Positions 2,468 through 53,813 of a stretch of 64,000 nucleotides of DNA are shown one piece after another. The notes under the pieces were generated by a model. The model was not told the origin of the DNA. It saw only the letters and a program-made list of their open reading frames with translations, and did no database searches. Each line of letters begins with the position of its first letter. The first letter of the stretch is position 1. The stretch lies in contig CAVZUR010000003.1 of assembly GCA_963778555.1 (NCBI GenBank), positions 117,704 through 181,703 on the forward strand, read 5' to 3'. The position numbers and the translations under genes are program-made. The stretch comes from Candidatus Moraniibacteriota bacterium. Its GTDB lineage: Bacteria; Patescibacteriota; Minisyncoccia; Moranbacterales; UBA1568.

Positions 2468-3559
2468 TCAGCAACCATTTAATCCAGCCTCGCCCCGGCA
2501 GCCAGGTACGGGATTGAAATTCACCACCGACTGCTGAACACCGGTGTACTTCCCATTGTTCGCACCTCGTTGCTGGCTGACATTCCGTAGAAACTGTGCT
2601 CCTGGACCAAGTTCTTTCATCAGATTTCGCCGTTCGCCCTGCAATTTCTTATCAACATTTCCGAGTTCGCGCGAAACGACTTTTGCGACCTCTTCAAAGC
2701 CGCGTTGATAAATATTATTGAGAGCTTGATTCGCAAAAGCCCCAGCAGCCGCCGCTAACAGCTCGCCCCATTTCTGCGATCCGGTTATCATTTGAAACGG
2801 AAGATTTTGTGCTGCTCCCGTAACATCAGCGATGATTGACCCGGGCGAGATGATTTTTCCGTTGACCTCCACCCCAGTGAATCCCTTGCCCGCAATGGCC
2901 CGCGTTTTGGCTAGCTCTTGATTTGCCGCGCGTTGCCGTTGGGCGGCATCTTTCATGTACTGACTCATACCGAGTGGATTATTGCAGTTGGAACCGATCG
3001 TAGCATTCATCACCCGCCAGTCGCCATTCCCGAGTGAGCGCACGACATCCGTCGAGTATTGGTCCAGATTGTACTGGCAATTATCCCGTGCGAAAGCAGC
3101 GTTGACTTCCAAATTAAGATAATTCAAATAGTTCATCCCGAGGCGTTGAACGCTGCCACCAGCGATGATATAGTTGAGGGCTGAATTTTTGCCGCCTGTC
3201 GCAGTCGTCAGGAGATCATTCACATAGATAAGCGACTCATCCAACGCGGCACCGTAGATATAGGCTTTGTAATCTGTGATAAAAGCAGGTTTTTTGGTCG
3301 ATCCACCAGCGACAAGTCTGTTCGCCGCATCTCGCGCGAGGGTAACTGCGACTCTCTTCGCGATACCAAAAAGTACTGCCTGAATTTGCTCCCAGATAAC
3401 TTCCAAAACCTGCTTCAATAACCCGGAAGCGATACTCTCACCCCAGACTCCGGCACGGGCCGGAAGCGGAGCCGCGGTTGTAAAAATCACAGCTCCGATA
3501 AGCACCGAGGCGATGTATTTTTGGATTCTATTTTTTTTCTGTGTTTGAATCGGTCGCAT
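2468..3559 (-). CDS. secreted hypothetical protein (N-terminal signal peptide)
   Basis: A 363-aa ORF. Its N-terminus MRPIQTQKKNRIQKYIASVLIGAVIFTTAAPLPARA looks like a signal peptide. The protein is rich in Gly/Asn/Ala and has no recognisable catalytic motif. Confidence 0.55.
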   Translation of the reverse strand: MRPIQTQKKNRIQKYIASVLIGAVIFTTAAPLPARAGVWGESIASGLLKQVLEVIWEQIQAVLFGIAKRVAVTLARDAANRLVAGGSTKKPAFITDYKAYIYGAALDESLIYVNDLLTTATGGKNSALNYIIAGGSVQRLGMNYLNYLNLEVNAAFARDNCQYNLDQYSTDVVRSLGNGDWRVMNATIGSNCNNPLGMSQYMKDAAQRQRAANQELAKTRAIAGKGFTGVEVNGKIISPGSIIADVTGAAQNLPFQMITGSQKWGELLAAAAGAFANQALNNIYQRGFEEVAKVVSRELGNVDKKLQGERRNLMKELGPGAQFLRNVSQQRGANNGKYTGVQQSVVNFNPVPGCRGEAGLNGC

Positions 3560-3568
3560 ATGCCAACA

Positions 3569-4606
3569 TCAGATGTCCAATGGTATATTGGTAATCCCAA
3601 AGGCAGTAAGCTGAGATTGCATTTCTTCCATAAAGGTTCCCAGCGACATCAGAAAACCTTGAACTTTCGAAAACATATACATTTGGCCAAGTGGATCACT
3701 CGTAGATACCGAAGCCTTGACCGTATCTTTCAGATTCGAAGCAAAGGTCAACATCTTGATTGTCTTCACATGTGTCGCCAGCATACTCTCTGGCACCTCG
3801 ACTTGATTCACCTCATCCAGCGCATTTTGTGCGCGCTCTTCGATTTTATCAAGATAAGAATAATTTCCCGAAAGTAATCCGAGTACCATCTGATTGCCGG
3901 CGTCAAGCGCGAAGTTCTTCAGTCCCGCTGTATCACGTATCTGGACTGGCGCGTTCGATATGAGGATATAGCTCGTGAGGGTCAGATACTCGACTACATC
4001 CTGACGATTCTGCTCCTCCTTCTCATCATCTGACAATTTTGTCGAAAGCGGTTTAATTTCAATGTCCGAAATATCCACGTCCGGCAGCACGATCTCTTCT
4101 TGACTCGCCGCCATGACATTTGCCATCACGGTACTCAGATCTTCGCTGGTGATTTCCGAACTTCCCACACTTTCAGAATCAGATCCCCCTTCAGCATTTT
4201 TGGACTTCTCGGTCACGAGCGCCGCTAATTCCTCAGAAGCTTTCGCTGTCAAATTTACTGTTCCAACTGCAGAGTCTGATTCAGCTACATCAAGAGACTC
4301 TTCTGACACTACTCTGTCACCGGGTGCCGGCTTCAGCGGGTCAAAGCCGCCCTCGATTTCAACACCATCACTGTAGCTGTCTCCATCCGTATCCGCGACC
4401 TCCGGATCCGTCCCATAGACTTTTTCCTCATCACTCGAGAGACCATCCTTGTCAGCATCATCAAAAACTGTTGTTTCTATTGTGGACGATTCATCCGCGG
4501 CAACAAACAAAGCCGTACTGAATAAACAAAGAAATCCAAACACGAACACGCTCCAACGCAAATTGTTTTTTGTTTGCGATACTCCCATATGAGTAGAGTA
4601 TATCAC
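3569..4606 (-). CDS. secreted acidic protein with thrombospondin-type-3-like Ca-binding Asp repeats
   Basis: It has a signal peptide, then DADKDGLSSDEEKVYGTDPEVADTDGDSYSDGVEIEGGFDP (DxDxDG repeats). The rest is very acidic. Confidence 0.55.
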   Translation of the reverse strand: MIYSTHMGVSQTKNNLRWSVFVFGFLCLFSTALFVAADESSTIETTVFDDADKDGLSSDEEKVYGTDPEVADTDGDSYSDGVEIEGGFDPLKPAPGDRVVSEESLDVAESDSAVGTVNLTAKASEELAALVTEKSKNAEGGSDSESVGSSEITSEDLSTVMANVMAASQEEIVLPDVDISDIEIKPLSTKLSDDEKEEQNRQDVVEYLTLTSYILISNAPVQIRDTAGLKNFALDAGNQMVLGLLSGNYSYLDKIEERAQNALDEVNQVEVPESMLATHVKTIKMLTFASNLKDTVKASVSTSDPLGQMYMFSKVQGFLMSLGTFMEEMQSQLTAFGITNIPLDI

Positions 4607-4871
4607 AACAAGATTATTGCAATACCGCGTATTTCATTTGCACAACAGATTTTCCTCTTGATGTTACTACACGAATATTTTTCGGGCCAACTGATCTAAT
4701 CTAAGCTGATACTCTGGACTGAAATTAGCATTCAGTGAGTCATCAAAAAATTCATTCCACACCGTACAGCACAAGCAGTCCAGTGTTAGTAACTTTATCG
4801 CTCGTATAATCTACAATCATCTATATGTATCTCGAGTGATGCATGATTATGCAATCTAATATATTATGTCA

Positions 4872-6164
4872 TCATAATGTCATCTTGTCAATCCTTATAG
4901 TAACTAGTGTAATTCCAAGCGCCAAGATAAATTGTCCTTGATATATATCCCATGGATAGTGATCAGTTACGATTATATACACAAGAAATATACTTAGTAG
5001 ATAATGCTGTCTCAATGTTTCACGTGGAACGCTTCTGAAAAATCTATAGATAAATATTGAAAAAACTATGAGTCCAACTATCCCCAACTCGACTAGGACT
5101 ATATATGGCACAAAATGAATTGGTTCATAATTCCACCAATTCAAATAATCTGTATTAGTGTAGTAACTTAGCCTATAGGATCCAATTCCTGAGCCAAGTT
5201 TAGTGATTTTTGTACTACTGAGTTGCTCAGAGAACTGAGTGAGTCTAGTTCTATATGACTGCACAGAGTCTCTTATAAGTAGTGTTTGAAAAACTAGCAC
5301 TAGTAAAAATAGAACTACAATCAGGACTCTATGTTTCACGTGGAACAATATATTCCAATTAGATCTTGCATAAAAATACGTCACTAGTAGACCGAAATAT
5401 GCGAAAATTGCTAGTTTTGACTGCGCTACCAGAATTGTAAGAAATGAAATGACTGACACTACTATTAAAATTCTTTGTTTCACGTGGAACAAACTCCCAA
5501 ACTCCAATAAATACACAAAAACTAGCAAGGCGTAGGCACTAAGTACATTTGGATGTGGAAATGTTCCATATCCACGTAATAGAGTGAAGCTAAAAATATT
5601 CGATTTTGCAATATTCTGGGCGGCAGTTCCCAAATTTGACTCATTTAAATAATTGAGTCCAATTGATTCAAAATTTATAACCTGAAGGCAGGATATGATC
5701 AGTTGAATAAATAGACTTAAAGACAAGATAACAGCGACTTCCTTTATGACTATTGTTCCACGTGAAACAACCAGATCAATGAACATTAATCCAAAAGAAA
5801 AAAGAAACATTAAATGAAAAATAGCTGCAATGCTCAAAATGGCATCAATAGATAAATATATCCCAATGAGTAAATATAGTACTCCAATATATAATATAAA
5901 ATGTTCCACGTGGAACTTCCAACGAGCTACGTTACTACATATTGACTTTATATCGAATTCATTGCTTTGTATTTTGATGAGTAAGGCTAGAAGAAGCAAA
6001 ATCTCACCAAAATATAGTGAGATGTCCATGTATTCATTGAATCCACCTGTGGATTGAGCACTACTAGGTATAAATATATAGCGCCAGGAAAAGGGTATTT
6101 GCCAAATATAGACATAAATCAAAATGTGATAAAACCTATTAAATGGTAAATTTATGGCTTGCAT
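4872..6164 (-). CDS. AT-rich polytopic membrane protein, Wzy/O-antigen-polymerase-like (low-GC, atypical composition)
   Basis: A 1293-bp ORF sits in roughly 33 percent GC DNA, which is unlikely by chance. It has at least 10 predicted TM helices. Wzy genes are typically AT-rich and horizontally acquired. Confidence 0.5.
   Translation of the reverse strand: MQAINLPFNRFYHILIYVYIWQIPFSWRYIFIPSSAQSTGGFNEYMDISLYFGEILLLLALLIKIQSNEFDIKSICSNVARWKFHVEHFILYIGVLYLLIGIYLSIDAILSIAAIFHLMFLFSFGLMFIDLVVSRGTIVIKEVAVILSLSLFIQLIISCLQVINFESIGLNYLNESNLGTAAQNIAKSNIFSFTLLRGYGTFPHPNVLSAYALLVFVYLLEFGSLFHVKQRILIVVSVISFLTILVAQSKLAIFAYFGLLVTYFYARSNWNILFHVKHRVLIVVLFLLVLVFQTLLIRDSVQSYRTRLTQFSEQLSSTKITKLGSGIGSYRLSYYTNTDYLNWWNYEPIHFVPYIVLVELGIVGLIVFSIFIYRFFRSVPRETLRQHYLLSIFLVYIIVTDHYPWDIYQGQFILALGITLVTIRIDKMTL
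5017..5916. repeat. five dispersed copies of a 14-bp (near-)palindrome GTTYCACGTGRAAC (extended TGTTTCACGTGGAACAA) inside the wzy-like ORF
   Basis: Copies lie at 5017-5030, 5333-5346, 5477-5490, 5755-5768 (opposite orientation) and 5903-5916 (perfect palindrome). They fall in different reading frames of the ORF and encode FHVKH, FHVKQ, FHVEH, VSRGT and VPRET. Confidence 0.85.
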
Positions 6165-38564: not shown

Positions 38565-40022
38565 TTAGGCTGAGAGCGGCTCGAATGAGTCTTCCTTTGG
38601 ATCCTCGCTGGAGTTGAAAATGCTCGCAACTTCCTTTGAAGTCACAGCTCGAGTCAGCCATAAAAGGCTAACGTACGATACTCCTCCGAGGAACAACGAG
38701 ACGAGAAAAGACAAGTGGACAGAAAGCGTGAGGACCACCGCCATGACTCCTGCTGAAAGAAAAATACGCACGAGCCGGTCTGGCTTCGGGAAAAATCCAA
38801 GAGTGCGGAAAGCGATAAGACCCGAAACGATCACTACCACAGCCTCAGTTACGGCGGACGAAACAGCCGCACCAAAATAGGAGTACTCTCGAATGAGAAG
38901 GATGTTCATGACGACATTCATCAAGGCTATGATCGCGAGCGCCTTCAAGAGTTTTTTCTGGGCATTCCCGACGAGAATGAGCATATTGAAGTAGTGGCCA
39001 AAGAAGATGCCCGCCAATGAGAATATAAGGACGCGCAGCACATTAGCTGAGACCTCGAATCCTGAACCACTGACGATGGCGACAATGTCGGGAGCTAGAA
39101 AGAGCGTCCCGATAACGATGGGGAGGACGATGGCTATAAAGACTTTAGCGGTTTTGTCAGCGATACCGCGGAATTCTCGCTGGTCTGTCTGATGAGCACG
39201 TGCTAGCAAGGGAAGGATGAGCCCGACCAGCATCGCTGGAAAAAAGATGAGATTCTCCATAATTTTGTAGGCGACATTATAGATACCCACATGCGCTGCC
39301 GGCTGGAGAAGCGAAAGTATAATCGTATCTAATTTGAAGTACGCGAAGGTGATAATAGCCGTGAGGCCTAGCGGCCAAGCATCACGCATAAAGGACTTCC
39401 AGAAGGAGACATCCCAAGTAAAGTGGAATCGGACCAGTTTCCAGGACAGGAACAGCGCCACGCACGCATTGAAAAACATCGTCGCAAGGACCGCCGCGAT
39501 GATTGCAAGAAAGCCGAGATCAAATTTGACCGCCAGATAGACAAGGCAGAATTGAAGGATTTTCCCTGCAAACTCCACCATCGCCACCCGATCCATTGCC
39601 AGCCGTTTTTGGAAGATTCCGTTGAGCAGTGTGCTGAACTGCGCGAATAGGAGTGCTATGGTCACGATTACAATGCCTCCTTTGACATGCGGGACGTAAT
39701 GGAGCAGTCCGAGAAGAATCGGTGCTCCGATAATAATCGCTAGGCTTGAAATAATTCGGAGCGTCGCCACTTTTCCGAGAAAGGACTCTTCGTCAACGGT
39801 CGGCTTGGCGATCTCCCGGGCGGTAATCGTCGCGAGTCCGAGGTCGCCAATAGCCCCGAAGAAAGCAAAGAAGGCGAGAACGGTTGCATACTCACCAAAA
39901 CCCTGTTGGCCGAGATAGCCAGTGATGAGACGGATGGAGAGAAGTGCGATGAAAACAGTCGACGTCACTTTGAGCGCCGAGTTAAATACGACGTTGTAGG
40001 CGATTCTTCGCGCGAGAGCCAT
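38565..40022 (-). CDS. wzx: oligosaccharide flippase, Wzx/polysaccharide biosynthesis protein family (MOP superfamily)
   Basis: A 485-aa protein with about 12-14 TM helices and an N-terminus MALARRIAYNVVFNSALKV... typical of the family. Confidence 0.75.
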   Translation of the reverse strand: MALARRIAYNVVFNSALKVTSTVFIALLSIRLITGYLGQQGFGEYATVLAFFAFFGAIGDLGLATITAREIAKPTVDEESFLGKVATLRIISSLAIIIGAPILLGLLHYVPHVKGGIVIVTIALLFAQFSTLLNGIFQKRLAMDRVAMVEFAGKILQFCLVYLAVKFDLGFLAIIAAVLATMFFNACVALFLSWKLVRFHFTWDVSFWKSFMRDAWPLGLTAIITFAYFKLDTIILSLLQPAAHVGIYNVAYKIMENLIFFPAMLVGLILPLLARAHQTDQREFRGIADKTAKVFIAIVLPIVIGTLFLAPDIVAIVSGSGFEVSANVLRVLIFSLAGIFFGHYFNMLILVGNAQKKLLKALAIIALMNVVMNILLIREYSYFGAAVSSAVTEAVVVIVSGLIAFRTLGFFPKPDRLVRIFLSAGVMAVVLTLSVHLSFLVSLFLGGVSYVSLLWLTRAVTSKEVASIFNSSEDPKEDSFEPLSA

Positions 40023-41796: not shown

Positions 41797-42033
41797 AGGT
41801 TATAAGAAATACATGTAGTCCAATTTTATTTTAAACAAAGGGAAAAGTCAACCTGGCCGGGGTCAATGCACCACCTTTCCCTCATTTTTTACCCACTTCT
41901 AAATTAAGTCAGCGACTTTTCTCCCTCCTTATTTTTTCGGCCATTTATACACTGATTCTCCACATATTATGCACTCTTCATTCTCGATGAAGTTGGCGGC
42001 ACATGGTACAATCAGATTTACTTGCTTTGCGCT

Positions 42034-43458
42034 ATGACCAACGAAGAACTCTGGAAAGCGGCTCTTGGCCAGATAGAACTTTCCCTTTCTAAAGCCAATT
42101 TCATTACCTGGTTTAAAAATACCTCCATCCTTTCGCAAGAGAGTGGTCGGGTTGTTATTGGTGTCCCGAACGGATTTGCTAAGGAGTGGCTGGAGAATAA
42201 GTATAATCTCTACATCATTAAAGCCCTCAAAAGCCTAGATCCGAGCATCCAGGATATTAAATGCGCTATTACGCCTCAGGGCGTACGGCTAACAGCTCCC
42301 CAGACTTTTAAGAAGTCTATGGATGCGGTTCGGCCTGCTGATGGACAGATCAACACTGCGCCCGCCGGGTTCTCTCGGAAAAAAATATCCGCGAAGCCGT
42401 CTTTGACTTCTCCGAGTGGAGATACCTACTCCCATAATCTCAATAGCCGGTACACTTTTGATAATTTTATCGTCGCAGAGAACAATGAGCTCGCCCGGGC
42501 CGCTTGTTTCGCAATTTCACAAAACCTCGGGCAACTCTATAATCCTCTTTTCATCTACGGCGGTGTGGGACTCGGGAAAACTCACTTGCTTCAAGCACTC
42601 GGGAACGAAATCACGCTCAAACAGCCTGAAAAGCGGGTAAAATACATTACATCCGAGCGCTTCACGAGCGAACTTGTCGAGTCAATAAAAAATCAGACTG
42701 TTGACCAGTTCAAGACTGCGTACGAACACATCGACCTTTTAATTATTGATGATGTTCAGTTTCTTTCGGGTCGAGAGAAGACCCAGAATGAGTTTTTTCA
42801 TATCTTTAATGCGCTCTATCAGCTCAATAAGCAGATTGTTATTTCAAGTGACCGAACACCAAAATCAATCCCGACCTTGGAGGAACGGCTGCGGTCTCGG
42901 TTTGAAGGGGGGATGATCGCGGATATTAGCCGCCCAAGCCTAGAAACCCGCGTTGCTATCCTCCAAACCAAAGCTCAAGAGCGGGGAGTCGCTATCGATC
43001 CTGCCTCTATTCAGTTCATTGCTGAGCATGTAAAAAATAATATCCGAGAACTCGAGGGGGCACTCTCGCGTGTCTTTGCTTATAGCGAGTTTCAGCAAGT
43101 CCCCATCACTTTCCCTTTAGTCCAAAAAGCTCTTTCAGATATGTTGGTGCAAACAAAAAAGTCTGTGAGGCTTGATGATATCGTGCAGGTTGTAAGTGAT
43201 TTCTACGGGGTTCCAGTGGAGGAGATGGTGAAAAAGGGACGCAAGAAAGAAGTTGCCCATCCCCGTCAGATAGCGATGTACCTCCTCCGTACCGAGCTGG
43301 ACACCCCTTTTTCTACAATTGGTACATTTTTCGGTGGTCGAGATCACACAACCGTACTGCACGCGGTAGAAAAAGTGAGTCAGAGTAAAGAAAGCCATCT
43401 CCGCATCAAAGAAGAACTCCTTTCGTTGAAAGAAAAATTACAAACGCCGGCTGTATAA
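42034..43458 (+). CDS. dnaA: chromosomal replication initiator DnaA
   Basis: Walker A (GGVGLGKTHLLQA), the AAA+ sensor motifs and a C-terminal DNA-binding domain. Confidence 0.95.
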   Translation: MTNEELWKAALGQIELSLSKANFITWFKNTSILSQESGRVVIGVPNGFAKEWLENKYNLYIIKALKSLDPSIQDIKCAITPQGVRLTAPQTFKKSMDAVRPADGQINTAPAGFSRKKISAKPSLTSPSGDTYSHNLNSRYTFDNFIVAENNELARAACFAISQNLGQLYNPLFIYGGVGLGKTHLLQALGNEITLKQPEKRVKYITSERFTSELVESIKNQTVDQFKTAYEHIDLLIIDDVQFLSGREKTQNEFFHIFNALYQLNKQIVISSDRTPKSIPTLEERLRSRFEGGMIADISRPSLETRVAILQTKAQERGVAIDPASIQFIAEHVKNNIRELEGALSRVFAYSEFQQVPITFPLVQKALSDMLVQTKKSVRLDDIVQVVSDFYGVPVEEMVKKGRKKEVAHPRQIAMYLLRTELDTPFSTIGTFFGGRDHTTVLHAVEKVSQSKESHLRIKEELLSLKEKLQTPAV

Positions 43459-43668
43459 GTCTGTATTACACTGTATGATTATTGCTTATCTTGTGGATAA
43501 ACTCTCCTCACTAACACTTTATCTCCATGAAACGAATTTTTCATACAATTCTATCCACTCGTTTATACTAAAAAATCCGCTTATCTAGGCTCTTAACCTA
43601 TGTTTCCCACTTATACAGATGACTAATAACAATAATATTTATATAAATATTCTTTATAGATTACTCTC
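43459..43668. promoter_or_regulatory. probable oriC: perfect DnaA box TGTGGATAA at 43492-43500, TATCCAC-core box at ~43551-43560, AT-rich DUE 43624-43660, between dnaA and dnaN
   Basis: Seen directly in the sequence, with the rpmH-dnaA-dnaN arrangement around it. Confidence 0.6.
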
Positions 43669-44799
43669 ATGAAACTCACCTGCACCCAAGAAAATCTTCG
43701 TAACGCTCTTTCTTTATTAGAGCGTGTTGTTGGGCGGCAAAGCTCGCTGCCTATCCTAAGTAATATTTTATTTGAGACGGAACAAGGGAGACTTTGTCTT
43801 TCAGCGACTAATCTGGAAATTGGGATAATCACTTCAATTGGAGCAAAAATCGAGTCGGAAGGCAAAATAACAGTACCAGCAAAACTGATCATTAATTTCA
43901 TCCAAAATCTTGCCGATGATCAAATTGTGAGTATTGAACAGATGGGGACGCAAGTGGTAGTCGTAAGTGGGGACTATACGGTAAAAATTAATGGATTAGA
44001 TAGTAAGGATTTCCCTATTATTCCTCGGAGGAGTGGTGGAAAAGTTTTTTTACTTCCAACAAATCCACTTCGTGAGGGACTCCAAAAAACACTCTTCTGT
44101 GTTTCTTTAAACGAAAGCCGTCCTGAACTTACAGGTGTCCTTTTTGGATTTCGAGCGGGGAAGTTCTTTCTGGCGGCAACAGATAGTTTTCGTCTCGCCG
44201 AGTGGAGTATGCAAGAATCAGCCGGTGGGGATATCAATCAGGAAGAGGGGCAGGAAGGAGTAGCGATTATCCCAGCGTACACCCTTCAAGAAGTATTGCG
44301 TACCTTACAGCAATCCTCAGACCAGGTAGGGGTTTCACTTGAGGAAAATCAGGTGTTCTTTGAAATTGGGAATACCCGCATTGTTTCAAGACTGATCAAC
44401 GGGAGATTCCCTGAGTATCAAACAATTATGCCAAAACAGTATTCTCTAGAAGTAGCCGTTGGCCAGGAAGAATTCCAAAGAGCTTTGAAAATAGCCACCT
44501 CTTTTTCCGTTTATAGCACTAATGAGGTCGTCTTCCGGTTGAATAACGAGGAAAAGCGGCTTGAAATCGAGTCGCATTCCCAAGGTATTGGAGAACAAAT
44601 CGCAAAAATCCCCTACAGTGGGGAGGTTGGGCAACCATTCCAGATCGTCTTCAGTCCGCGCTATATTCTGGAGGGTGTAGCCGCCCAACGCGGGGGGCAG
44701 ACTATCCTCTCCTTCAATTCCCCAGCCACCCCAGCCAAAATTTCTTCAGGGGTGGGGCAATCCGGGTACACGTACATTGTGATGCCTATCCGAAAATAG
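43669..44799 (+). CDS. dnaN: DNA polymerase III beta sliding clamp
   Basis: A 376-aa protein in three-domain clamp layout, downstream of dnaA. Confidence 0.9.
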   Translation: MKLTCTQENLRNALSLLERVVGRQSSLPILSNILFETEQGRLCLSATNLEIGIITSIGAKIESEGKITVPAKLIINFIQNLADDQIVSIEQMGTQVVVVSGDYTVKINGLDSKDFPIIPRRSGGKVFLLPTNPLREGLQKTLFCVSLNESRPELTGVLFGFRAGKFFLAATDSFRLAEWSMQESAGGDINQEEGQEGVAIIPAYTLQEVLRTLQQSSDQVGVSLEENQVFFEIGNTRIVSRLINGRFPEYQTIMPKQYSLEVAVGQEEFQRALKIATSFSVYSTNEVVFRLNNEEKRLEIESHSQGIGEQIAKIPYSGEVGQPFQIVFSPRYILEGVAAQRGGQTILSFNSPATPAKISSGVGQSGYTYIVMPIRK

Positions 44800-44841
44800 A
44801 GCAGGGTTCTCTTAGTCTGCGTGTCCTAAACCCATACCCAC

Positions 44842-45144
44842 ATGCGTTCACTTAAAGAATATATCGGAGGGAGAGAGTGGCGGGCACCCCACCTCCATCA
44901 TGTGGTAGATGATAAAACAATTTTTCATCTCTTCCGAAAGATTGTGAGGGAAGAATATGGTGCGCGCGGAGCGGCAGAACTTACTCCCACCGCGTTTGTT
45001 GAGGGGGTGCTATCCGTAAAGGCTGCTAGCCCACTCTACTCGAGTGAACTTTGGATGCGTCGTGAGGCTATTATTGGTCGAATGAATACCACGCTCGGAA
45101 ATGGGGGGGTAAAAGAAATCCGATTTGTTCGGTATAGCCCTTAG
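44842..45144 (+). CDS. small DUF721/DciA-like protein
   Basis: A 100-aa basic protein placed where DUF721/DciA helicase-loader proteins are commonly found. The sequence match is from memory and weak. Confidence 0.35.
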   Translation: MRSLKEYIGGREWRAPHLHHVVDDKTIFHLFRKIVREEYGARGAAELTPTAFVEGVLSVKAASPLYSSELWMRREAIIGRMNTTLGNGGVKEIRFVRYSP

Positions 45145-47750: not shown

Positions 47751-49133
47751 CTACCTCGAAAGAGTTTTCAAGTCTTGGTCAGTAATCCCGAGTTGATCCA
47801 GCACCCAGATATGGCGAGGATTACTTGGATCATACTTGCCGATATTCCAGCGCTGCATCTCAGGCTCATTCTTGTAGAGTGTCTCCCAGATAGCGATGTT
47901 CCCTTCGCGGTAGATGATGTCTTTGGTAAAACAAGCCCCGGGCGTTCGGCCATCAGTGCCTCGAAAGGTTCGAACTGTGCGGCCCCAGGCGCTGCTGGCT
48001 GCTTTCTTCTGGGCTAGGAGACCATCTTCCCCACGAGAGAGGTTTTTCACGAAGTAATATCGACGAAGAATGTCATAGGTTTCTCGGAAATCACGGGGAT
48101 GACCATCAAGACCAGTTGCAAGACTGATAGCGAAGTGACCGTCGAAACCTGAATAGTCTTCCGCTTCGCCCGCAAGCGCCTGTTCTCGGAGTGTTGCGAT
48201 CCCTTCCTCACCGCCTTCGTAGCGGTCGAGCCCCAACCCGAGTAGCTGCAGCTTGGTCCGTTCACCATTCAATCGTCGTGCTGTGTGCGTCCCGATCTCG
48301 TGTGCAATGAGTCCCTTGAGCTCGTTGACGGGCATCTTCCGCCCAGGCGGGACTTGAACCGCTTTCTTTTCCTGGTTCACGCTCACTCCAGTGCGCTTCG
48401 GATCAATGACGGCTATCCAGCCCTCGGCCGAGAGAGTCTCGAGTGCTGCCCCGAAAGCCAACCGGATTTCCTCATCGCTGAGCTCCCCATGCTCTTTCGG
48501 GAGCTTCAGGATATCCCCTAATGCAGTTTCTGTTTGATCTTTAACGCGTCCAAGGATTTCAGCTCGCGGCTTCTCTAGCGAGGAAGGCATACCCGCATCT
48601 GGCAGCGCATCCAAGAGTGAAGTGGCTTCTCGTCGTATGGTGTCGTTATCACTTCGCGCCAAGAGACCCTCAAGCTCCCCGCGAATCTGCCGAAGCGTGT
48701 ACGTAAAGATTTCCTCCGAAGGCTTCCCATAGATGAATTCAGAATAGCGACGGAAGCGCCGGGCATCACCTGTTGCTGCAGCTAACAACAGACGATTTTC
48801 TGCGATTTTTTCGTTCAAACGCCAGCGGTAGACGTTTCTGACGACCTCGTTTTTCTCTTGGGCGAGCACGCTTTCTTTCAAATCAAGCAGCTCATCATAT
48901 CGCTCGAGGAGTTGACCCTCATCTAAGAGGGGATAATCCAAGTCAGGATTTTCTTTTTCACCAGAGAGAAATACCGCCTTCTCTTTGGCGCGCACCGCAG
49001 CATCACCGTCGAGATACTCATAAGCCTGAAAAGCGCCGATTTCTTCGAAGCGAGCATACCACTCCTTATCGAGCGGTATCGGTTTGATATCGGTTTCAGC
49101 GTTTGTGTTCGGTAGTGGTGGTCGCTCGATCAT
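47751..49133 (-). CDS. DUF1704-family putative zinc metallo-carboxypeptidase (HEIGTH = HExxxH; QEGLA-family/MATCAP-like)
   Basis: The GLIAHEIGTHTARRLNGE motif is the key feature. This is the last gene of the ATP-grasp operon. Confidence 0.55.
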   Translation of the reverse strand: MIERPPLPNTNAETDIKPIPLDKEWYARFEEIGAFQAYEYLDGDAAVRAKEKAVFLSGEKENPDLDYPLLDEGQLLERYDELLDLKESVLAQEKNEVVRNVYRWRLNEKIAENRLLLAAATGDARRFRRYSEFIYGKPSEEIFTYTLRQIRGELEGLLARSDNDTIRREATSLLDALPDAGMPSSLEKPRAEILGRVKDQTETALGDILKLPKEHGELSDEEIRLAFGAALETLSAEGWIAVIDPKRTGVSVNQEKKAVQVPPGRKMPVNELKGLIAHEIGTHTARRLNGERTKLQLLGLGLDRYEGGEEGIATLREQALAGEAEDYSGFDGHFAISLATGLDGHPRDFRETYDILRRYYFVKNLSRGEDGLLAQKKAASSAWGRTVRTFRGTDGRTPGACFTKDIIYREGNIAIWETLYKNEPEMQRWNIGKYDPSNPRHIWVLDQLGITDQDLKTLSR

Positions 49134-49783
49134 GAGAGGGGGGAATTGATAAGATCAGTATACTGCATTAGCCTGAAGGGTTTGATCATTGCGCGGAAGC
49201 TCGAACCGCGGAGAAACTCAAGCTCAACCACACGCTCCTGATTATATGGGTAGCGGCAGCGCACATCCCTATAGCCAGGGTGGACAACGAGCTCAGAGAT
49301 CTGGTAGCCTCTTGCTTCACGGAGCCTTTTTTTGAGTATGTGTAGGCGCTCGGGGTGCCATGAAACGAAGTTGCCTGGCGTTGCCAGCCCGTTTTCTTTC
49401 AAAATGGCCCGGTCGACTGGAAAACGTGAGCGGACCGGGAGGCTGTAGCGCTTGGCAGCACGAATTGTCCAGTCAAGATTCTCGGAATGGAGATGCTTAT
49501 GCTGGTGACCATCAAGATACGCCGGAAGCCGGCCGAAACGCTCCCGGAAACGCTCAATTTGATCCTTGATTTCTTCAGGAGACGAAGCGGTTCGTAGTTC
49601 GAGGTGTAGGCCGAGCGGAATGCCAAACGCGAGCAATTCATTTCTTTTGATGTATTGCCGTTTTATCATTATAGAAATACCGGTAATTAATCGAGCACTG
49701 GCAAGCTCGAGTATTCCCTGGTTAAAAGAAGGAGACATCCCGTAATCATCCGCGGTGATGATAAGGGAGGGCCGGATCTTCAT
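49130..49783 (-). CDS. YdjC/ChbG-family carbohydrate deacetylase-like protein
   Basis: The N-terminal motif is IITADDYGMS. It has 4-bp overlaps with both neighbours. Confidence 0.65.
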   Translation of the reverse strand: MKIRPSLIITADDYGMSPSFNQGILELASARLITGISIMIKRQYIKRNELLAFGIPLGLHLELRTASSPEEIKDQIERFRERFGRLPAYLDGHQHKHLHSENLDWTIRAAKRYSLPVRSRFPVDRAILKENGLATPGNFVSWHPERLHILKKRLREARGYQISELVVHPGYRDVRCRYPYNQERVVELEFLRGSSFRAMIKPFRLMQYTDLINSPLS

Positions 49784-51720
49784 TTTTTTCTCTTAGCAGC
49801 GCGTTTGAGGGCGCTAAGGATAGCAAGATAAAGTTTCTCGATGTGTGGCCGCTCAGACTCGTCCGGATACAGGCCAGGCATAGTATTCAATTCTACGATC
49901 CAAGGGGTACCGTTTCGGTCGAACATGAGATCGATAGCGTATATTTTTTCCGAGAAATTAGCATAGTAATCTTGAATGGTCTTTACGATTGGCCACACAG
50001 CCGCCGGAATTTGTTCCTTCAGAACCATGGTCTGCATACCACCTTGAGCGAGATTGGCGAGATAGCTCCCTTTTTTTGGGGTGCGGTAATAGGAGTAAAC
50101 AAGATCATTGTTTGAAAAGATGAGCCGCAGATCGTGGAGCCCCGTCATAACACCCGGGATACCAGCCTCTGAATTGACGAATTCTTGGACCAGGATCGGG
50201 TATCTATGGGTCTCAAGCAGGAGCGCCTTTTTATCCAAGATGAGCACTCCCTCGCCGCTATTCCCGCGCTCTGGCTTCACAACTGCCATATGGCCTTGAA
50301 CTCGTCCAACACTATTTTTGAGCTCTGTCTGAGACGTAGCAACAAAGTATGGCTTAGCGAAGCGCTCAAAGGCACGGCTAACAGCGAGTTTGCTACCGGC
50401 GTGCTCGGAAAATTCTGGATGATTCACCATCGGAAACCAAGGGAGGAGGGACCTTTTTATTGGAAGCGTGGCCGGATTCATGGTGGATTTGTCATAAATA
50501 ACATCAGGAACAATCGAGTCTGTTAAGACCCAATCCTTGCCGTTCCAATGCCAGGCGAGATGGAAACGAGCTCTCTTTTTGTCGTACCAATTTGTCGAGC
50601 TTCGATAGAGTTTCACCCCCTCCCTTTGCGCGAGTTCTGCGAATGCCGTGTACGCAACACAAAGGGCTTTTTCTTGAAAGGCGAGTTTCCCCTCACCTCT
50701 GAAAGGAGTGAAAAGAATGACAACGCTAAGATACTGAGTCGGTTTCTTTTCAAGAGCGACTCGTTGGTCTGGTGTTGTAAGGGACTTCTTCAGTTCACGG
50801 AGGAGCCGCTTGTATACCCGCAACATGGTAGCCTTCTCGTCAGTTGGGAAAAACATACCAGGCATCGTGTTGTATTCGATCACCCATGGACGACCGGTTC
50901 CATCGAACATAACATCAATGGTGTAGGTTTTTTCAGTGAAGACAGCAAAGAGGTCGCGCGTGTCGCTGATGATAGGTTGGAGCGACTCGGGGAGTTTGCT
51001 ATTCGGGATAATTCTCATGCTTCCTCCTTGGGCGATATTCGCGAGAAACGACCCCTTCTTTGGTGTCCGAATATAGCTGTATACAAGCTCCTTACCAATA
51101 AACACCATCCGAAGGTCGTGGTATGTAGTCGTAAGACCGGGTATGCCCCCAGAGCTATCGATGAATTCCTGGACGATGACTGGGAAGGAGAGCTTGAGTT
51201 TCAAGGCTTCTTCTTTAGAAACTATGTAGACGCCAGTACCGCCACTGCCAATTATAGGCTTGATGACAATCTTGTCTCCAGTATACGTCTTGAGTAAACG
51301 TGCGAGACCCGCAACGCTGGAGATTTTCCGATACGGTTTAAAATGACGAGGAAGTCGACGGCTCATTTCATACTTATTGCTTGCAAAACGGGTGAATGCT
51401 GGATCATCGACAAACCGATACCGTGAAATAATCACAGCCCGGGTTGAATCATCATCCGAATCCCCGCTCGTTTTATCGTATACGAGATCGGGTTTCACCG
51501 GACCGGAGATGTGCCATACCCCGTCGACAAATTCCCATGATTTTTTAAAAATATCCCGATCCGTATCGTACCAATCGAGTGGCGCTCGGCAGAGATGGAG
51601 TCCTACCGTTTCACCGAGCGTATACAGCGTCTCATAGCAGCGCTGATACTTCACATCAGAAAAAGGTGTATGTGGCCCCGCATGGTGAGCGGTGTACAGA
51701 ATGAGGACTATCTTTTTCAT
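49780..51720 (-). CDS. tandem double ATP-grasp ligase (two RimK-like ATP-grasp domains, each preceded by a similar pre-ATP-grasp N-domain)
   Basis: Domain 1 has IVIKPIIGSGGTGVYIV and DVMFDGTGRPWVIEYNTMPG. Domain 2 has AVVKPERGNSGEGVLIL and DLMFDRNGTPWIVELNTMPG. Confidence 0.7.
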   Translation of the reverse strand: MKKIVLILYTAHHAGPHTPFSDVKYQRCYETLYTLGETVGLHLCRAPLDWYDTDRDIFKKSWEFVDGVWHISGPVKPDLVYDKTSGDSDDDSTRAVIISRYRFVDDPAFTRFASNKYEMSRRLPRHFKPYRKISSVAGLARLLKTYTGDKIVIKPIIGSGGTGVYIVSKEEALKLKLSFPVIVQEFIDSSGGIPGLTTTYHDLRMVFIGKELVYSYIRTPKKGSFLANIAQGGSMRIIPNSKLPESLQPIISDTRDLFAVFTEKTYTIDVMFDGTGRPWVIEYNTMPGMFFPTDEKATMLRVYKRLLRELKKSLTTPDQRVALEKKPTQYLSVVILFTPFRGEGKLAFQEKALCVAYTAFAELAQREGVKLYRSSTNWYDKKRARFHLAWHWNGKDWVLTDSIVPDVIYDKSTMNPATLPIKRSLLPWFPMVNHPEFSEHAGSKLAVSRAFERFAKPYFVATSQTELKNSVGRVQGHMAVVKPERGNSGEGVLILDKKALLLETHRYPILVQEFVNSEAGIPGVMTGLHDLRLIFSNNDLVYSYYRTPKKGSYLANLAQGGMQTMVLKEQIPAAVWPIVKTIQDYYANFSEKIYAIDLMFDRNGTPWIVELNTMPGLYPDESERPHIEKLYLAILSALKRAAKRKK

Positions 51721-51723
51721 AGC

Positions 51724-53136
51724 CTATTTCTTGCTGACGTCTACGAGAAAGGTACCGAGATTGCGTCGACCGATTATAGCCTGATACTGGAGTGATGATC
51801 GGTCCACGACGGTCGGGCTGGCCGAGATTATTTGGCTATCCATGATGATTGTCAAACCAATCTTCGGACGCATGCTCACGCCGTTTGAGGCAAAAACAAA
51901 AACGATGTCAGCGAGGTCGGGCAGATCTGAGCGAAGATATTTTTTCTTAAGCTCGTCCCGAAGGCGGTCACCTTCTTCCTGCGAGGCGGGGAGGATTGTT
52001 TCGATACCATCAAAATATTCCAGGACTTCGCTGAAGCCGAGTTCTTCAGCAAGCTCGCGGTCGATTGAACTGGAATCGGCGCCAGTATCAATCTTCGCCT
52101 CAACCTCTATTTCTTTCCCGTCCTTACCGACAAACTTCACTTTTTCAATTGTCCCGATGACGCGCTTGCCCGAGAGGCTCTCGATATTTTCTTCAATCTC
52201 GCCGCCGAAGAGATTCATGCCGACCCGGACGCCGTGGTCGACGCTTTTTATCTTAACTCCTTTCACTCGTTCGAGCCGCTCCCGTAACCCTGCCATATTG
52301 GCGAGCTGGATGGAAAGTCCGGGCCGAGCGTTCAGTTCCAGGATAACGGGCCCCTCGTCGCGGTCGATCGCGATGTCTGCGCCGAGAAAACCAAGGCCTG
52401 AAACCTCCTGGGCTTTTACAGCCATCGTAAGAATGTCTTTCCAACGAGGGATCTTGATACCAGAGAGGAGGAGTCGAGTCTCTGGGACATACTCGATGAG
52501 GCGGCCTTTACCGACAATTGCGGTAGTTGTGGTGCCGTTGGCCATATCGATACCGACACCTATGGCTCCTTGGTGAAGATTGGCTTTGCCACCCGAGTCC
52601 TTGGTGGGAAGACGTAGCATCGCCATCACCGGCACGCGGTTGAAAATAATAATACGAATATCGGGAATTCCTTTCCAGGTATATGGCTTGAAGAGCTTCA
52701 AGAGTTTCAGGCGTTCCTCGAAGAAGGCAATGTCTGGCTTGTTGGAAAGCGAGTAGGTCCCATCCAAGATATTCTCGATGTGGCTTTTCAGGTCGGCGAT
52801 GGTAATGAGATTGCCGTCAGCCTTCACCCAGGCGTCGTCACGGCCTTTCTTTCGGGCATACACAACTACAATGCCTTCCCCACCGAAGCCGCGATTCGGT
52901 TTGAGCGCAAAACTCTCGGGGAGTGATTGCCAATTGAAATGTTCAAGCTCGACAGGCGTGCGGATTTTCGCAATGAGCTTCGAGACGGGAAGGCTATTTT
53001 TTTTCAGCGCGACTTTGCAGCGAAGCTTCTGGTCAGCGAGACGCCGTCCGCGGGCGTGATTGTAGGGCCGCACATAATCAAGATTTCGGGCGTTCATCCC
53101 GAGAAGAGTGCGGCTTTGCGCGAGCCAGGAAAGCAT
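51724..53136 (-). CDS. RimK-related ATP-grasp (alpha-L-glutamate-ligase-like) fused to C-terminal retropepsin-like aspartyl protease domain (DTGA)
   Basis: LLGMNARNLDYV...FALKPNRGFGGEGIVVV...PVILELNARPG marks the ATP-grasp part. The C-terminal EVEAKIDTGADSSSID marks the retropepsin-like part. Start chosen at Met55 of the ORF. Confidence 0.7.
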   Translation of the reverse strand: MLSWLAQSRTLLGMNARNLDYVRPYNHARGRRLADQKLRCKVALKKNSLPVSKLIAKIRTPVELEHFNWQSLPESFALKPNRGFGGEGIVVVYARKKGRDDAWVKADGNLITIADLKSHIENILDGTYSLSNKPDIAFFEERLKLLKLFKPYTWKGIPDIRIIIFNRVPVMAMLRLPTKDSGGKANLHQGAIGVGIDMANGTTTTAIVGKGRLIEYVPETRLLLSGIKIPRWKDILTMAVKAQEVSGLGFLGADIAIDRDEGPVILELNARPGLSIQLANMAGLRERLERVKGVKIKSVDHGVRVGMNLFGGEIEENIESLSGKRVIGTIEKVKFVGKDGKEIEVEAKIDTGADSSSIDRELAEELGFSEVLEYFDGIETILPASQEEGDRLRDELKKKYLRSDLPDLADIVFVFASNGVSMRPKIGLTIIMDSQIISASPTVVDRSSLQYQAIIGRRNLGTFLVDVSKK

Positions 53137-53153
53137 AAGGAAGGAAGAAAGAA

Positions 53154-53813
53154 CTATGACTCCTGCTTCAGAATATGGCGGAAACGGAAGAGCTCCACCA
53201 AGCGGAGCCCTGACCACTTTCCGAGGCCAATATTGATGAGGAATGTCGCGAGTATTGCCCAGGGGTACTGGAGGAAGAATTCGCGGAGCGCGGGCCACCC
53301 GATGACAAAATAACCAATGATGGAGATAGCGAGTGTCTCACCAGCGAGAAACAGAGCCGTCTTCGTTCCCTGCTCGATCTGCGTTGCAATGAATTTTTCC
53401 GCGAGCGTGATGAGGATGAGTAAGGGGAAGATATCGACCGCAGCAAGACCAGTGCGCTTGAGTGAGGCTCCGAAAACGAGGATACCGAGCACAGTGATCG
53501 AAATGATCGAAAGCGTAATGGCAACGCGGGGGAGGTAGAGGAGTCGGAAGGAACGCAAGAGATACCGAGAAAGGATGCCCATCCCGATTACGGCGAAAAA
53601 GATAGCGATGCCATACTTCAACCCCTTCTCACCGAAGGCGAGAAACGCGAAGGTGATGATGGATGGTGTGTAGATGCCGAACGCCTTGATACCGACAATT
53701 TGCCGGAAGAAGGCGACGAGGGTCGCGATGACCGGCAGCATGAGGAGGAGATAGACAGTCTCCACGGGTACGCCAGCTCCCACGAAGTAATTGATGATCG
53801 GATGATAGCTCAT
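53154..53813 (-). CDS. 7-TM integral membrane protein (7TM partner of RimK-like/aspartyl-protease cassette)
   Basis: A 219-aa protein with seven hydrophobic helices, directly upstream of the ATP-grasp-protease gene on the same strand. Confidence 0.55.
   Translation of the reverse strand: MSYHPIINYFVGAGVPVETVYLLLMLPVIATLVAFFRQIVGIKAFGIYTPSIITFAFLAFGEKGLKYGIAIFFAVIGMGILSRYLLRSFRLLYLPRVAITLSIISITVLGILVFGASLKRTGLAAVDIFPLLILITLAEKFIATQIEQGTKTALFLAGETLAISIIGYFVIGWPALREFFLQYPWAILATFLINIGLGKWSGLRLVELFRFRHILKQES

Follow-up and report, generated by a model that had tools for sequence, protein, structure and literature searches.

A ligase-peptidase cassette related to the Rlo and Rim systems, with a MATCAP-family peptidase, in a Moranbacteria-like genome

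In Pseudomonas aeruginosa, one operon encodes a secreted retropepsin (rloA), a seven-transmembrane (7TM) protein of the inactive-transglutaminase type (rloB) and an ATP-grasp ligase (rloC) (Lormand et al., mBio 2025, PMC12239564). Hypo-osmotic tolerance, normal cell shape, biofilm formation and antibiotic tolerance all depend on the three RloA paralogues together, which cleave runs of at least eight glutamates; deletion of rloB or rloC suppresses the protease-null phenotype (PMC12239564). Nearly all RloB matches (96%) lie in Proteobacteria (PMC12239564). RimK and RimB form a cytoplasmic pair that adds and removes glutamates on ribosomal protein S6; RimK also makes free poly-alpha-glutamate, RimB stimulates that synthesis and cleaves polyglutamate, and RimB-RimK hybrid proteins (RimBK) exist (Little et al., JBC 2025, PMC11957791). 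In this study, a 64,000-nucleotide stretch of contig CAVZUR010000003.1 from a Candidatus Moraniibacteriota bacterium (positions 117,704 to 181,703; hereafter the window) was analysed. It carries a cassette of five minus-strand genes at 47751-53813, encoding, in order, a 7TM membrane protein, an ATP-grasp ligase fused to a retropepsin (ligase::protease), a tandem double ATP-grasp protein, a YdjC protein and a peptidase of the MATCAP (formerly DUF1704) family. Judged by its protein families, the cassette appears to be an expanded variant of the Rlo/Rim ligase-peptidase class and not categorically new. What is new is the repeated coupling of bacterial MATCAP peptidases to ATP-grasp ligases, fusion proteins included, together with compact, soluble versions in the candidate phyla radiation (CPR) that make Rlo chemistry directly testable.

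All five open reading frames (ORFs) of the original prediction were present, and every family it had named was recovered with hidden Markov models: PF14402 for the 7TM protein, PF14397 and PF05618 for the ligase::protease, PF08443, PF14398 and PF03133 for the tandem ligase, PF04794 for YdjC and PF08014 for the MATCAP-like protein. No cassette ORF fell into an unrelated family, and the DUF1704 protein has the HExxxH fold. The NCBIfam models TIGR02291 and TIGR02421 also matched window proteins, but below the NCBI cut-offs. The statement that the arrangement has not been characterised was overstated: its core is homologous to rloABC and parallels RimK/RimB, and both systems were studied in 2025 (PMC12239564, PMC11957791). 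The homology to rloABC follows from two matches. The ligase domain was 43% identical to an 'alpha-L-glutamate ligase-like protein' on a Legionella plasmid (L154), where a 152-aa retropepsin-sized gene, an 'inactive transglutaminase family protein' and the ligase stand in the canonical rloABC order, and the 7TM protein matched the C-terminal part of RloB. In both systems the same three protein families are genetically linked, and the window's retropepsin keeps the catalytic DTG and the polyglutamate-binding basic residues. However, the window's protease is cytoplasmic and C-terminal to the ligase, whereas Pseudomonas RloA is a separate protein secreted with a signal peptide; the 7TM protein has no periplasmic transglutaminase-like domain; and the gene order is B-C::A instead of A-B-C. 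The window further adds two RimK-like ligase units, YdjC and the MATCAP-family peptidase, and its host is a candidate-phyla bacterium.

The ligase::protease gene occupies 51724-53136 (minus strand, 470 aa). The longest ORF extended to a GTG start at 53298 (51724-53298) and overlapped the 7TM gene by 145 nt; the ATG at 53136 was taken as the true start because all homologues (alignment A3) and a 100%-identical database protein (P0121) begin there. Neither a transmembrane (TM) or other hydrophobic segment nor a signal peptide was present in the protein. Its N-terminal part (52261-53088, minus strand, aa 17-292) is a ligase domain of the sugar-transfer-associated type (ATPgrasp_ST), matching PF14397 with an E-value of 2.2e-65 (221 bits against a cut-off of 31.4). 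TIGR02291, 'alpha-L-glutamate ligase-like', scored 282.8 bits (2.8e-84), just under its cut-off of 314.2, and the ATP-grasp K, D and E-x-N positions were invariant in alignment A3. The retropepsin-like aspartic peptidase domain follows at 51730-52170 (minus strand, aa ~323-469), with its catalytic DTGA motif at 52078-52089 (minus strand). It was recognised by PF05618 (1e-6), by the RloA3 model (8e-8) and by comparison with PDB entry 9g58 (E 0.0026). In alignment A3, D350, G352 and R446 were invariant, and K348, T351, A353 and R423 were conserved in at least 90% of the sequences. K348, D350, R423 and R446 align with K26, D28, R94 and R117 of 9g58, and their spacing is that of K46, D48, R114 and R137 in RloA. 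Mutation of the basic residues K46, R114 and R137 abolishes both polyglutamate cleavage and function in vivo, and D48 is the catalytic aspartate (PMC12239564). The polyglutamate-contact residues of RloA are thus conserved in the window's protease domain and in the other CPR fusions.

The 7TM gene (53154-53813, minus strand, 219 aa) is the first of the cassette. Its product matched PF14402 (7TM_transglut, 2e-28) over the 7TM module only, and it covered the 195 C-terminal residues of the RloB model NF052267 (positions 313-507 of 508; 79 bits against a cut-off of 900). The protein shows five to seven hydrophobic segments and a C-terminal tail that is basic; none of the other four cassette proteins has TM segments. 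Neither Pfam and NCBIfam searches nor the hydrophobicity profile revealed a transglutaminase or other extracytoplasmic domain in its 219 residues. An AlphaFold2 model was obtained with a mean confidence (pLDDT) of 79.5. Longer 7TM partners of ~520 aa occur in L045 (14408-15970, minus strand), L100, L103, L109, L117, L118, L136 and L148. The L045 protein, the one long form tested, carries an N-terminal PKD domain where Proteobacteria have the transglutaminase-like domain, and the extracytoplasmic module of the 7TM partner appears to be interchangeable.

The tandem ligase gene (49780-51720, minus strand, 646 aa) encodes two RimK-like ATP-grasp units, the first at 50746-51720 (minus strand, aa 1-325) and the second at 49783-50745 (minus strand, aa 326-646). 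PF08443, PF14398 and PF03133 matched both halves. Within aa 113-289 of the first unit, matches to RimK (PF08443), GSH-S_ATP and ATP-grasp_3 were found, and aa 142-316 aligned with the RimK structures 5zct and 4iwx with the K, QEF, D and E-x-N motifs kept. The second unit matched YheCD, TTL (PF03133, 8.8e-14) and rimK_fam within aa 429-631. The K, QEF, D and E-x-N nucleotide- and metal-binding motifs were found in both units by alignment and by direct reading. The best PDB matches of the tandem ligase were RimK structures (E ~3e-4). The RimK domain model PF08443 scored 67.5 against a cut-off of 21, the TIGR00768 family model only 68.5 against 143.4 and the S6-ligase equivalog model 32.7 against 331. 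The Pfam and PDB matches bear out the RimK/TTL-like nature that had been proposed for these ligases. The two units are 35% identical to each other and belong to one gene cluster, 'RimKl', which in relatives consists of one or two separate genes of ~318 aa. All three ligase domains of the original prediction hold up, but among the cassettes compared the fused double form is confined to the window and its two closest relatives (L003 and L004).

With RimK/RimB the cassette shares an ATP-grasp enzyme resembling alpha-L-glutamate ligases and a retropepsin of the type that removes glutamate chains; in both, ligase-protease fusions exist and the enzymes are cytoplasmic, and RimK structures are the best PDB matches for the tandem ligase. 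It differs in the obligatory membrane partner and in ligase scores below the RimK-family cut-off. In RimBK hybrids, moreover, the retropepsin is N-terminal, whereas the window's protease is C-terminal and attached to an RloC-type rather than a RimK-type ligase. The S6 gene rpsF was not recognised among the window ORFs examined.

The last gene (47751-49133, minus strand, 460 aa) encodes a gluzincin metallopeptidase with an N-terminal helical domain of ~200 aa. PF08014 matched it with 70 bits (2e-19; cut-off 27). The HEIGTH (HExxxH) motif lies at 48285-48302 (minus strand, aa 278-283) and is identical to that of human MATCAP; an EEG motif lies at 48201-48209 (minus strand, aa 309-311). Both were invariant in 44 homologues and aligned with MATCAP, and the protein agreed in its three-dimensional fold with a MATCAP-type HExxxH/EEG metallopeptidase, as had been expected of it. 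In MATCAP and TMCP, HExxxH and the Glu of EEG are the metal ligands, and these enzymes are carboxypeptidases that remove C-terminal tyrosine and also shorten glutamate chains (PMC10499314). The TIGR02421 model (QEGLA-motif, hypothetical equivalog) scored 54.4 bits against a cut-off of 338.65. Apart from the annotation name 'flavohemoglobin expression-modulating', we know of no function demonstrated for the MATCAP/DUF1704 proteins of bacteria. An exhaustive search recovered 1694 representatives of the family at 50% identity, 417 of them at E<=1e-30. Patescibacteria (Moranbacteria, Saccharibacteria, Magasanikbacteria, Peregrinibacteria, Microgenomates and others) supplied nearly all of the close homologues, and the CPR proteins form a subfamily of their own (the 417 representatives at E<=1e-30).

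Two side observations concern this family. Ten metagenome-assembled genome records (L003, L004, L007, L021, L029, L030, L038, L053, L055 and L061) carry MATCAP proteins 41-71% identical to the window's and are titled 'uncultured Bdellovibrionales', 'Gammaproteobacteria' or 'Pseudomonadales'. Their examined flanks (e.g., L003, L004 and L038) have the Moranbacteria-type order ruvB-yebC-ruvC-cassette-PBP1A-dciA-dnaN-dnaA (PBP1A, class-A penicillin-binding protein), and these taxonomic labels look wrong. Further, distant MATCAP-like genes of DPANN and other archaea (L062-L071; 24-40% identity over the catalytic half) usually adjoin an RsmB/F-type rRNA methyltransferase gene, and one (L063) also adjoins an ATP-grasp gene.

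The original prediction saw in the cassette a bacterial counterpart of the tubulin tail cycle, in which TTL/TTLL ligases are opposed by MATCAP/TMCP (KIAA0895L/KIAA0895). Members of both enzyme superfamilies do stand side by side in the window, the Pfam TTL model matches the second ligase unit, and TMCPs also remove glutamate chains. However, sequence identity to the eukaryotic peptidase was only 20% and the bacterial protein has the additional N-terminal helical domain; the ligases are RimK/RloC-like and not true TTL members; the setting is a bacterium without tubulin; and the window adds an aspartic peptidase, a 7TM protein and a sugar deacetylase. The comparison holds as an analogy of enzyme families and not as a demonstrated mechanism.

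The YdjC gene (49130-49783, minus strand, 217 aa) encodes a putative carbohydrate (N-acetyl-amino-sugar) deacetylase, matching PF04794 with 117.5 bits (1.2e-33; cut-off 29.7). It has the motifs DDYG (aa 12), HLE (aa 60), GHQH (aa 92) and HPG (aa 168), which we take to serve catalysis and metal binding, after the literature on ChbG and TTHB029. The equivalog models remained below their cut-offs: ChbG (chitin-disaccharide deacetylase) scored 66.8 against 227 and HpnK 30.5 against 232.6. In the biosynthesis of mycothiol (MshA-D) and bacillithiol (BshA-C) and in the hopanoid enzymes HpnI/HpnK, N-acetylglucosamine (GlcNAc) is installed, its amine is unmasked and then acylated with an amino acid, and an acetyltransferase follows. 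YdjC in the window, glycosyltransferase family 4 (GT4) and GNAT acetyltransferase genes in sister cassettes and the amide ligases resemble this set. The enzymes are not orthologous, however, the sugar genes are optional in the cassette and thiol or hopanoid genes are absent, while those pathways have no counterpart of the peptidases and the 7TM protein.

Approximately 150 related loci were compared. A core-anchored set comprised 80 metagenomic loci found with a profile of the ligase::protease; a MATCAP-anchored set comprised 70 loci from species-representative genomes, of which 53 bacterial loci with an intact MATCAP gene were counted (tblastn and ORF clustering). In the core-anchored set, the 7TM gene was directly upstream in 74 of 80 loci, the remainder being cut by contig ends, and the protease was fused to the ligase in 77 of 80. 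MATCAP was present in 5, YdjC in 2 and GT4 in 5 of the 80. One to three further ATP-grasp genes followed the core in 73 of 94 cassettes (none in 21, one in 32, two in 31 and three in 10). They fell into three families, namely RimKl (the type duplicated in the window), a ~300-aa RimK-like family ('c3') and 'G12'. The system is therefore modular: the membrane-ligase-protease core is invariant, extra ligases are common, and genes for tailoring or trimming are optional. The window carries one of the richest versions. The complete five-family array, in the window's order and strand, was found in L003, L004, L033, L038, L052, L057 and the metagenomic L082, and truncated in L002; YdjC was directly upstream of MATCAP in L002-L004, L033, L038, L052, L057 and L082. 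Co-conservation of the five genes, which the original prediction had made a test of its proposal, was thus found for the full array in relatives but not for MATCAP and YdjC as obligate partners. The slot before PBP1A was variably filled by GT4 (15 loci overall), GNAT, YdjC or MATCAP, and an LCP-family gene lay within the flanks of five loci. In ~18 metagenomic loci (including L113, L119, L122-L125, L133, L135, L138, L139, L146 and L151) the 7TM-ligase::protease-RimK-like cassette adjoined the genes for L7/L12, L10, L1 and L11 and nusG, mostly on the opposite strand; this adjacency may reflect synteny within a lineage, or it may point to a ribosomal substrate.

In the MATCAP-anchored set, an ATP-grasp ligase lay within 10 kb in 29, a retropepsin in 22 and a 7TM gene in 17 of the 53 loci. 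At least five distinct arrangements of genes, spread over several CPR classes, bring MATCAP together with ligases. Besides the Moranbacteria type seen in the window, Saccharibacteria without the 7TM core have MATCAP next to a RimK-like ligase of ~300 aa and a retropepsin encoded on its own (PF05618 7e-18); Magasanikbacteria and Kaiserbacteria have it with an ATP-grasp_4 (L-amino-acid-ligase-like) gene; and in Roizmanbacteria a second MATCAP paralogue stands beside the core. Two Saccharibacteria (L042:11416-13818 and L045:12022-14424, both minus strand) encode an 800-aa fusion of ATPgrasp_ST, a retropepsin-like segment and MATCAP. The outer domains were recognised by Pfam (PF14397 1e-71; PF08014 3e-47), and the central segment was recognised by BLASTP only (26% identity, with DTGE instead of DTGA); the MATCAP motif of the fusion is HEIETH. 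Beside it lie a separate full-length MATCAP gene, a GT4 gene and a RimK-like ligase gene. These proteins explain why clustering merged MATCAP with the ligase::protease, which was therefore not an artefact; L147 may carry the same fusion. Because the pairing recurs in unrelated layouts, fusion proteins included, a functional link between MATCAP and ATP-grasp proteins is well supported. A search of one full-text library found no report of a MATCAP/DUF1704-ATP-grasp link; a prior mention in the 2009 Iyer/Aravind amidoligase paper (PMC3268129) is possible.

The association was also examined on annotated plasmids. Proteobacterial MATCAP/QEGLA proteins are longer (~630-660 aa). On Sinorhizobium pSymB (L153:5319-9120), the QEGLA gene overlaps a gene for an N-formylglutamate amidohydrolase (FGase), a GshB-like ATP-grasp gene then follows, and a GT4 gene lies near this operon. 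In Vibrio (L152:6038-8029), QEGLA MATCAP is fused to an FGase domain. In Photobacterium damselae, QEGLA adjoins 'GshB' and both are induced at low salinity, QEGLA 27-fold. As in the window, the PF08014 gene of the Sinorhizobium and Photobacterium loci adjoins or overlaps a gene for an ATP-grasp ligase, but there the partner ligase is glutathione-synthetase-like, the partner hydrolase is FGase, and retropepsin and 7TM genes are lacking. FGase-QEGLA-GshB represents another type of module that joins a ligase with a hydrolase, here centred on glutamate amides.

We consider it somewhat probable that the cassette as a whole is an expanded Rlo/Rim system that builds and trims an acidic peptide chain in a Moranbacteria-like CPR genome. 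What follows on the residue added, on its acceptor, on the direction of transport and on how the two peptidases share the work is inferred. The three cytoplasmic ATP-grasp units, one RloC-type and two RimK-type, would add amino acids stepwise in amide linkage at the expense of ATP; the residue would most likely be glutamate or another acidic amino acid, giving a short acidic chain on an acceptor. The fused retropepsin would cut the chain internally, in the way that RimB and RloA cleave runs of at least eight glutamates, and may thereby release the product and stimulate synthesis, as RimB does for RimK. The MATCAP-family zinc peptidase would trim or recycle the chain from its C-terminal end, one residue at a time, in the manner of MATCAP/TMCP on the Tyr and Glu tails of tubulin; from the recurrent linkage of bacterial MATCAP relatives to ATP-grasp ligases, a fusion protein included, it is predicted that these relatives hydrolyse ligase-made peptide tails. 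The 7TM protein, the obligate partner of the core ligase, would tie the process to the membrane as an exporter, an anchor or an acceptor-presenting subunit. The YdjC step would be optional and would unmask the amine of an N-acetyl-amino-sugar, either to provide an alternative acceptor or to modify the acceptor. The enzymes of the cassette are all cytoplasmic; in Pseudomonas, the genetics imply that the product of RloB and RloC reaches the periplasm.

Several points weigh against this scheme. Glutamate is an extrapolation from RimK and from the specificity of the proteases, as no biochemical activity is known for RloC-type ligases. Structural comparison of the 7TM model gave no convincing or informative solved homologue. 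MATCAP was absent from ~94% and YdjC from ~97% of the core-anchored loci, and since ~45% of the MATCAP loci had no ligase within 10 kb, the peptidase may have an independent housekeeping role. The adjacency of MATCAP in Moranbacteria is possibly in part inherited synteny, because the slot between ruvC and PBP1A is conserved. Several ATP-grasp paralogues per cassette hint at a defined heteropeptide, which they would fit better than a homopolymer. Finally, a periplasmic protease in Pseudomonas contrasts with a cytoplasmic, fused one in the window, and the pathway may therefore work differently. Given that the membrane partner is obligate and that sugar enzymes (YdjC, GT4 and GNAT) recur, a free peptide or an amino-sugar is at least as likely an acceptor as a protein C-terminus. 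The sugar enzymes suggest that an unmasked amino-sugar amine is an acceptor or a part of the product in some lineages, the genes being too sporadic for the core chemistry.

In the model of the original prediction, the system writes and erases at the C-terminal end of one particular protein, for instance S6: the ligases would add Glu- or Tyr-type tails and both peptidases would remove them. This model would be compatible with the RimK- and TTL-like ligases, with the action of RimK and RimB on the S6 tail (PMC11957791), with the activity of MATCAP and TMCP as protein C-terminal carboxypeptidases (PMC10499314), with the cytoplasmic location of all the enzymes and with the ~18 cassettes beside ribosomal protein genes. 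We nevertheless regard it as unlikely. No substrate candidate emerged from the window: where the original prediction had proposed a nearby protein with an acidic C-terminus, the only such protein noticed was ribosomal protein L19 (23574-24044, minus strand, PF01245 1e-30), whose C-terminal extension of ~45 residues ends in EEAKAEAKTEKE, and its gene is 24 kb away and not linked to the cassette. A soluble cycle also leaves the obligate 7TM partner of the core ligase and the sugar enzymes of the cassettes unexplained. Further, in the single genetic study available rlo and rimB show no interaction, and the Rlo proteases act outside the cytoplasm (PMC12239564).

The membrane partner and the sugar enzymes would be accommodated if the product were a peptide-decorated amino-sugar or envelope glycopolymer, in which YdjC deacetylates a GlcNAc-type unit and the ligases acylate its amine. 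In relatives, GT4 would install the unit and GNAT would cap it; the 7TM protein would move the product outward, and the peptidases would edit or recycle it. YdjC is present in the window, the same slot of related cassettes holds GT4 or GNAT, the LCP-family gene recurs in five flanks, and the Pfam name of the core ligase reads 'sugar-transfer associated'. On the downstream side PBP1A is the conserved neighbour, the 7TM proteins of other lineages have transglutaminase-like or PKD domains outside the cytoplasm, a GT4 gene accompanies the Sinorhizobium QEGLA operon, and rlo mutants have cell-shape, ampicillin and hypo-osmotic phenotypes (PMC12239564). However, with GT4 and YdjC each in a small minority of the core-anchored loci, the sugar enzymes lie outside the invariant chemistry. 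The window's cassette has no nucleotide-sugar or lipid-carrier enzyme, the adjacency of PBP1A is largely a lineage-specific syntenic backbone, and the polyglutamate-binding residues kept in the retropepsin point to a peptide and not a sugar as substrate. We rate this explanation as slightly less probable than the protein-tail cycle. At 38565-40022 (minus strand), ~8 kb from the cassette, lies a gene for a polysaccharide biosynthesis protein (flippase) of the Wzx type, which would matter were the product an envelope glycopolymer.

Far less probable is that there is no five-gene system at all, the 7TM protein, the ligase::protease and the RimK-like ligases being the unit and YdjC and MATCAP merely sharing a variable syntenic slot with unrelated substrates. 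Such a reading can draw on the ~24 of 53 MATCAP loci without a ligase within 10 kb and the ~75 of 80 core loci without MATCAP, on the position of the cassette in a long co-directional string with equally short gaps to ruvC and PBP1A, and on the comparison with L003 and L004, in which the core (7TM protein and ligase domain) was 89-94% identical and the tandem ligase, YdjC and MATCAP were 60-74% identical. Against it stand the ligase-retropepsin-MATCAP fusion in L042 and L045, the Saccharibacteria in which MATCAP lies beside RimK-like ligases and stand-alone retropepsins without a 7TM core, and the MATCAP genes that adjoin ATP-grasp_4 ligases in Magasanikbacteria and Kaiserbacteria or GshB-like ligases in Proteobacteria. 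Recurrence in unrelated layouts is hard to put down to synteny. A graspetide-type cluster for a ribosomally synthesised and modified peptide or an anti-phage defence module, suggested by the superficial likeness of ATP-grasp, protease and membrane protein to microviridin/graspetide clusters, has next to no probability and was rejected, as the cassette has no precursor-peptide ORF and no intergenic space above 30 nt, the nearest small conserved ORF (55742-55963) encodes a hydrophobic membrane protein, and the five proteins matched neither the peptide-maturase models of NCBIfam nor PADLOC.

If the expanded Rlo/Rim scheme is right, its bearing is on the osmotic tolerance, cell shape, biofilm formation and antibiotic tolerance that Rlo systems affect in pathogens. 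The CPR cassettes are versions whose enzymes are all cytoplasmic, with ligase and protease in a single polypeptide, and they provide soluble proteins for reconstitution; the neighbouring extra ligases, exopeptidase and sugar enzymes narrow down their chemistry. The cassette gives a direct way to test what Rlo/Rim systems and bacterial MATCAP relatives do. The linkage of MATCAP to ligases suggests that the ligase/carboxypeptidase pair acting on tubulin arose in prokaryotes. A bolder proposal, possible but doubtful, is that RimK/TTL-like ligases, MATCAP and, as a second eraser, retropepsin form a bacterial writer-eraser for non-templated C-terminal tails on a single common substrate at the membrane, and that eukaryotic TTL/TTLL and MATCAP/TMCP descend from such a prokaryotic pair. 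The fusions of Saccharibacteria would then be the most compact form of a writer-eraser system.

The genes of the cassette are packed tightly, as is normal in such genomes. Reading of the junctions agreed with the 4-bp ATGA overlaps and gaps of 3-17 bp that had been described: 17 nt separate the 7TM stop from the ATG of the ligase::protease, 3 nt separate the stop of the latter from the ATG of the tandem ligase, and ATGA overlaps occur at both the tandem-ligase/YdjC and the YdjC/MATCAP junctions. As regards the predicted five-gene operon, the genes and their packing are as described, but a bounded unit is not: ruvC, upstream, ends 9 nt from the 7TM gene, and 30 nt lie between the end of MATCAP and the start of the PBP1A gene. 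With such short gaps on both sides, the cassette is not a delimited operon but belongs to a longer string of genes in one direction (ruvB, a small membrane ORF, a bPH_2 protein, yebC, ruvC, the cassette and PBP1A). This string converges on dciA-dnaN-dnaA. Scans for consensus promoters and terminators gave 15 promoter-like sites, against 8.8±3.2 expected, and terminators at background level, and did not mark off the cassette clearly. Other genomes, and not gene spacing, provide the evidence for a grouping beyond chance.

The genes dnaA and dnaN and a DciA-family gene lie at 42022-45144 (plus strand), and the cumulative GC skew has its minimum at ~46-48 kb. The cassette is therefore within a few kb of the probable replication origin. 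Since a cassette of up to 6 kb is kept near the origin in minimal CPR genomes, a function important to the envelope or to physiology is implied. Between yebC and ruvB, outside the cassette, 55145-55963 (minus strand) encodes a membrane protein with a bPH_2 domain (197 aa) and a hydrophobic 73-aa ORF with two helices; the two are kept in 15-22 related loci. Elsewhere in the window, three consecutive ORFs (363, 345 and 430 aa) at 2468-6164 (minus strand) had no Pfam match and are partly of low GC content, with a dip to 0.379 at 4001-6000 compared with ~0.52; the DNA there is maybe foreign or fast-evolving. At 13563-17549 (minus strand), a 1328-aa protein, probably a large surface protein, has a PKD domain and five PA14 repeats in addition to a glucose/sorbosone dehydrogenase domain; the ORF that follows it (568 aa) matched no family.

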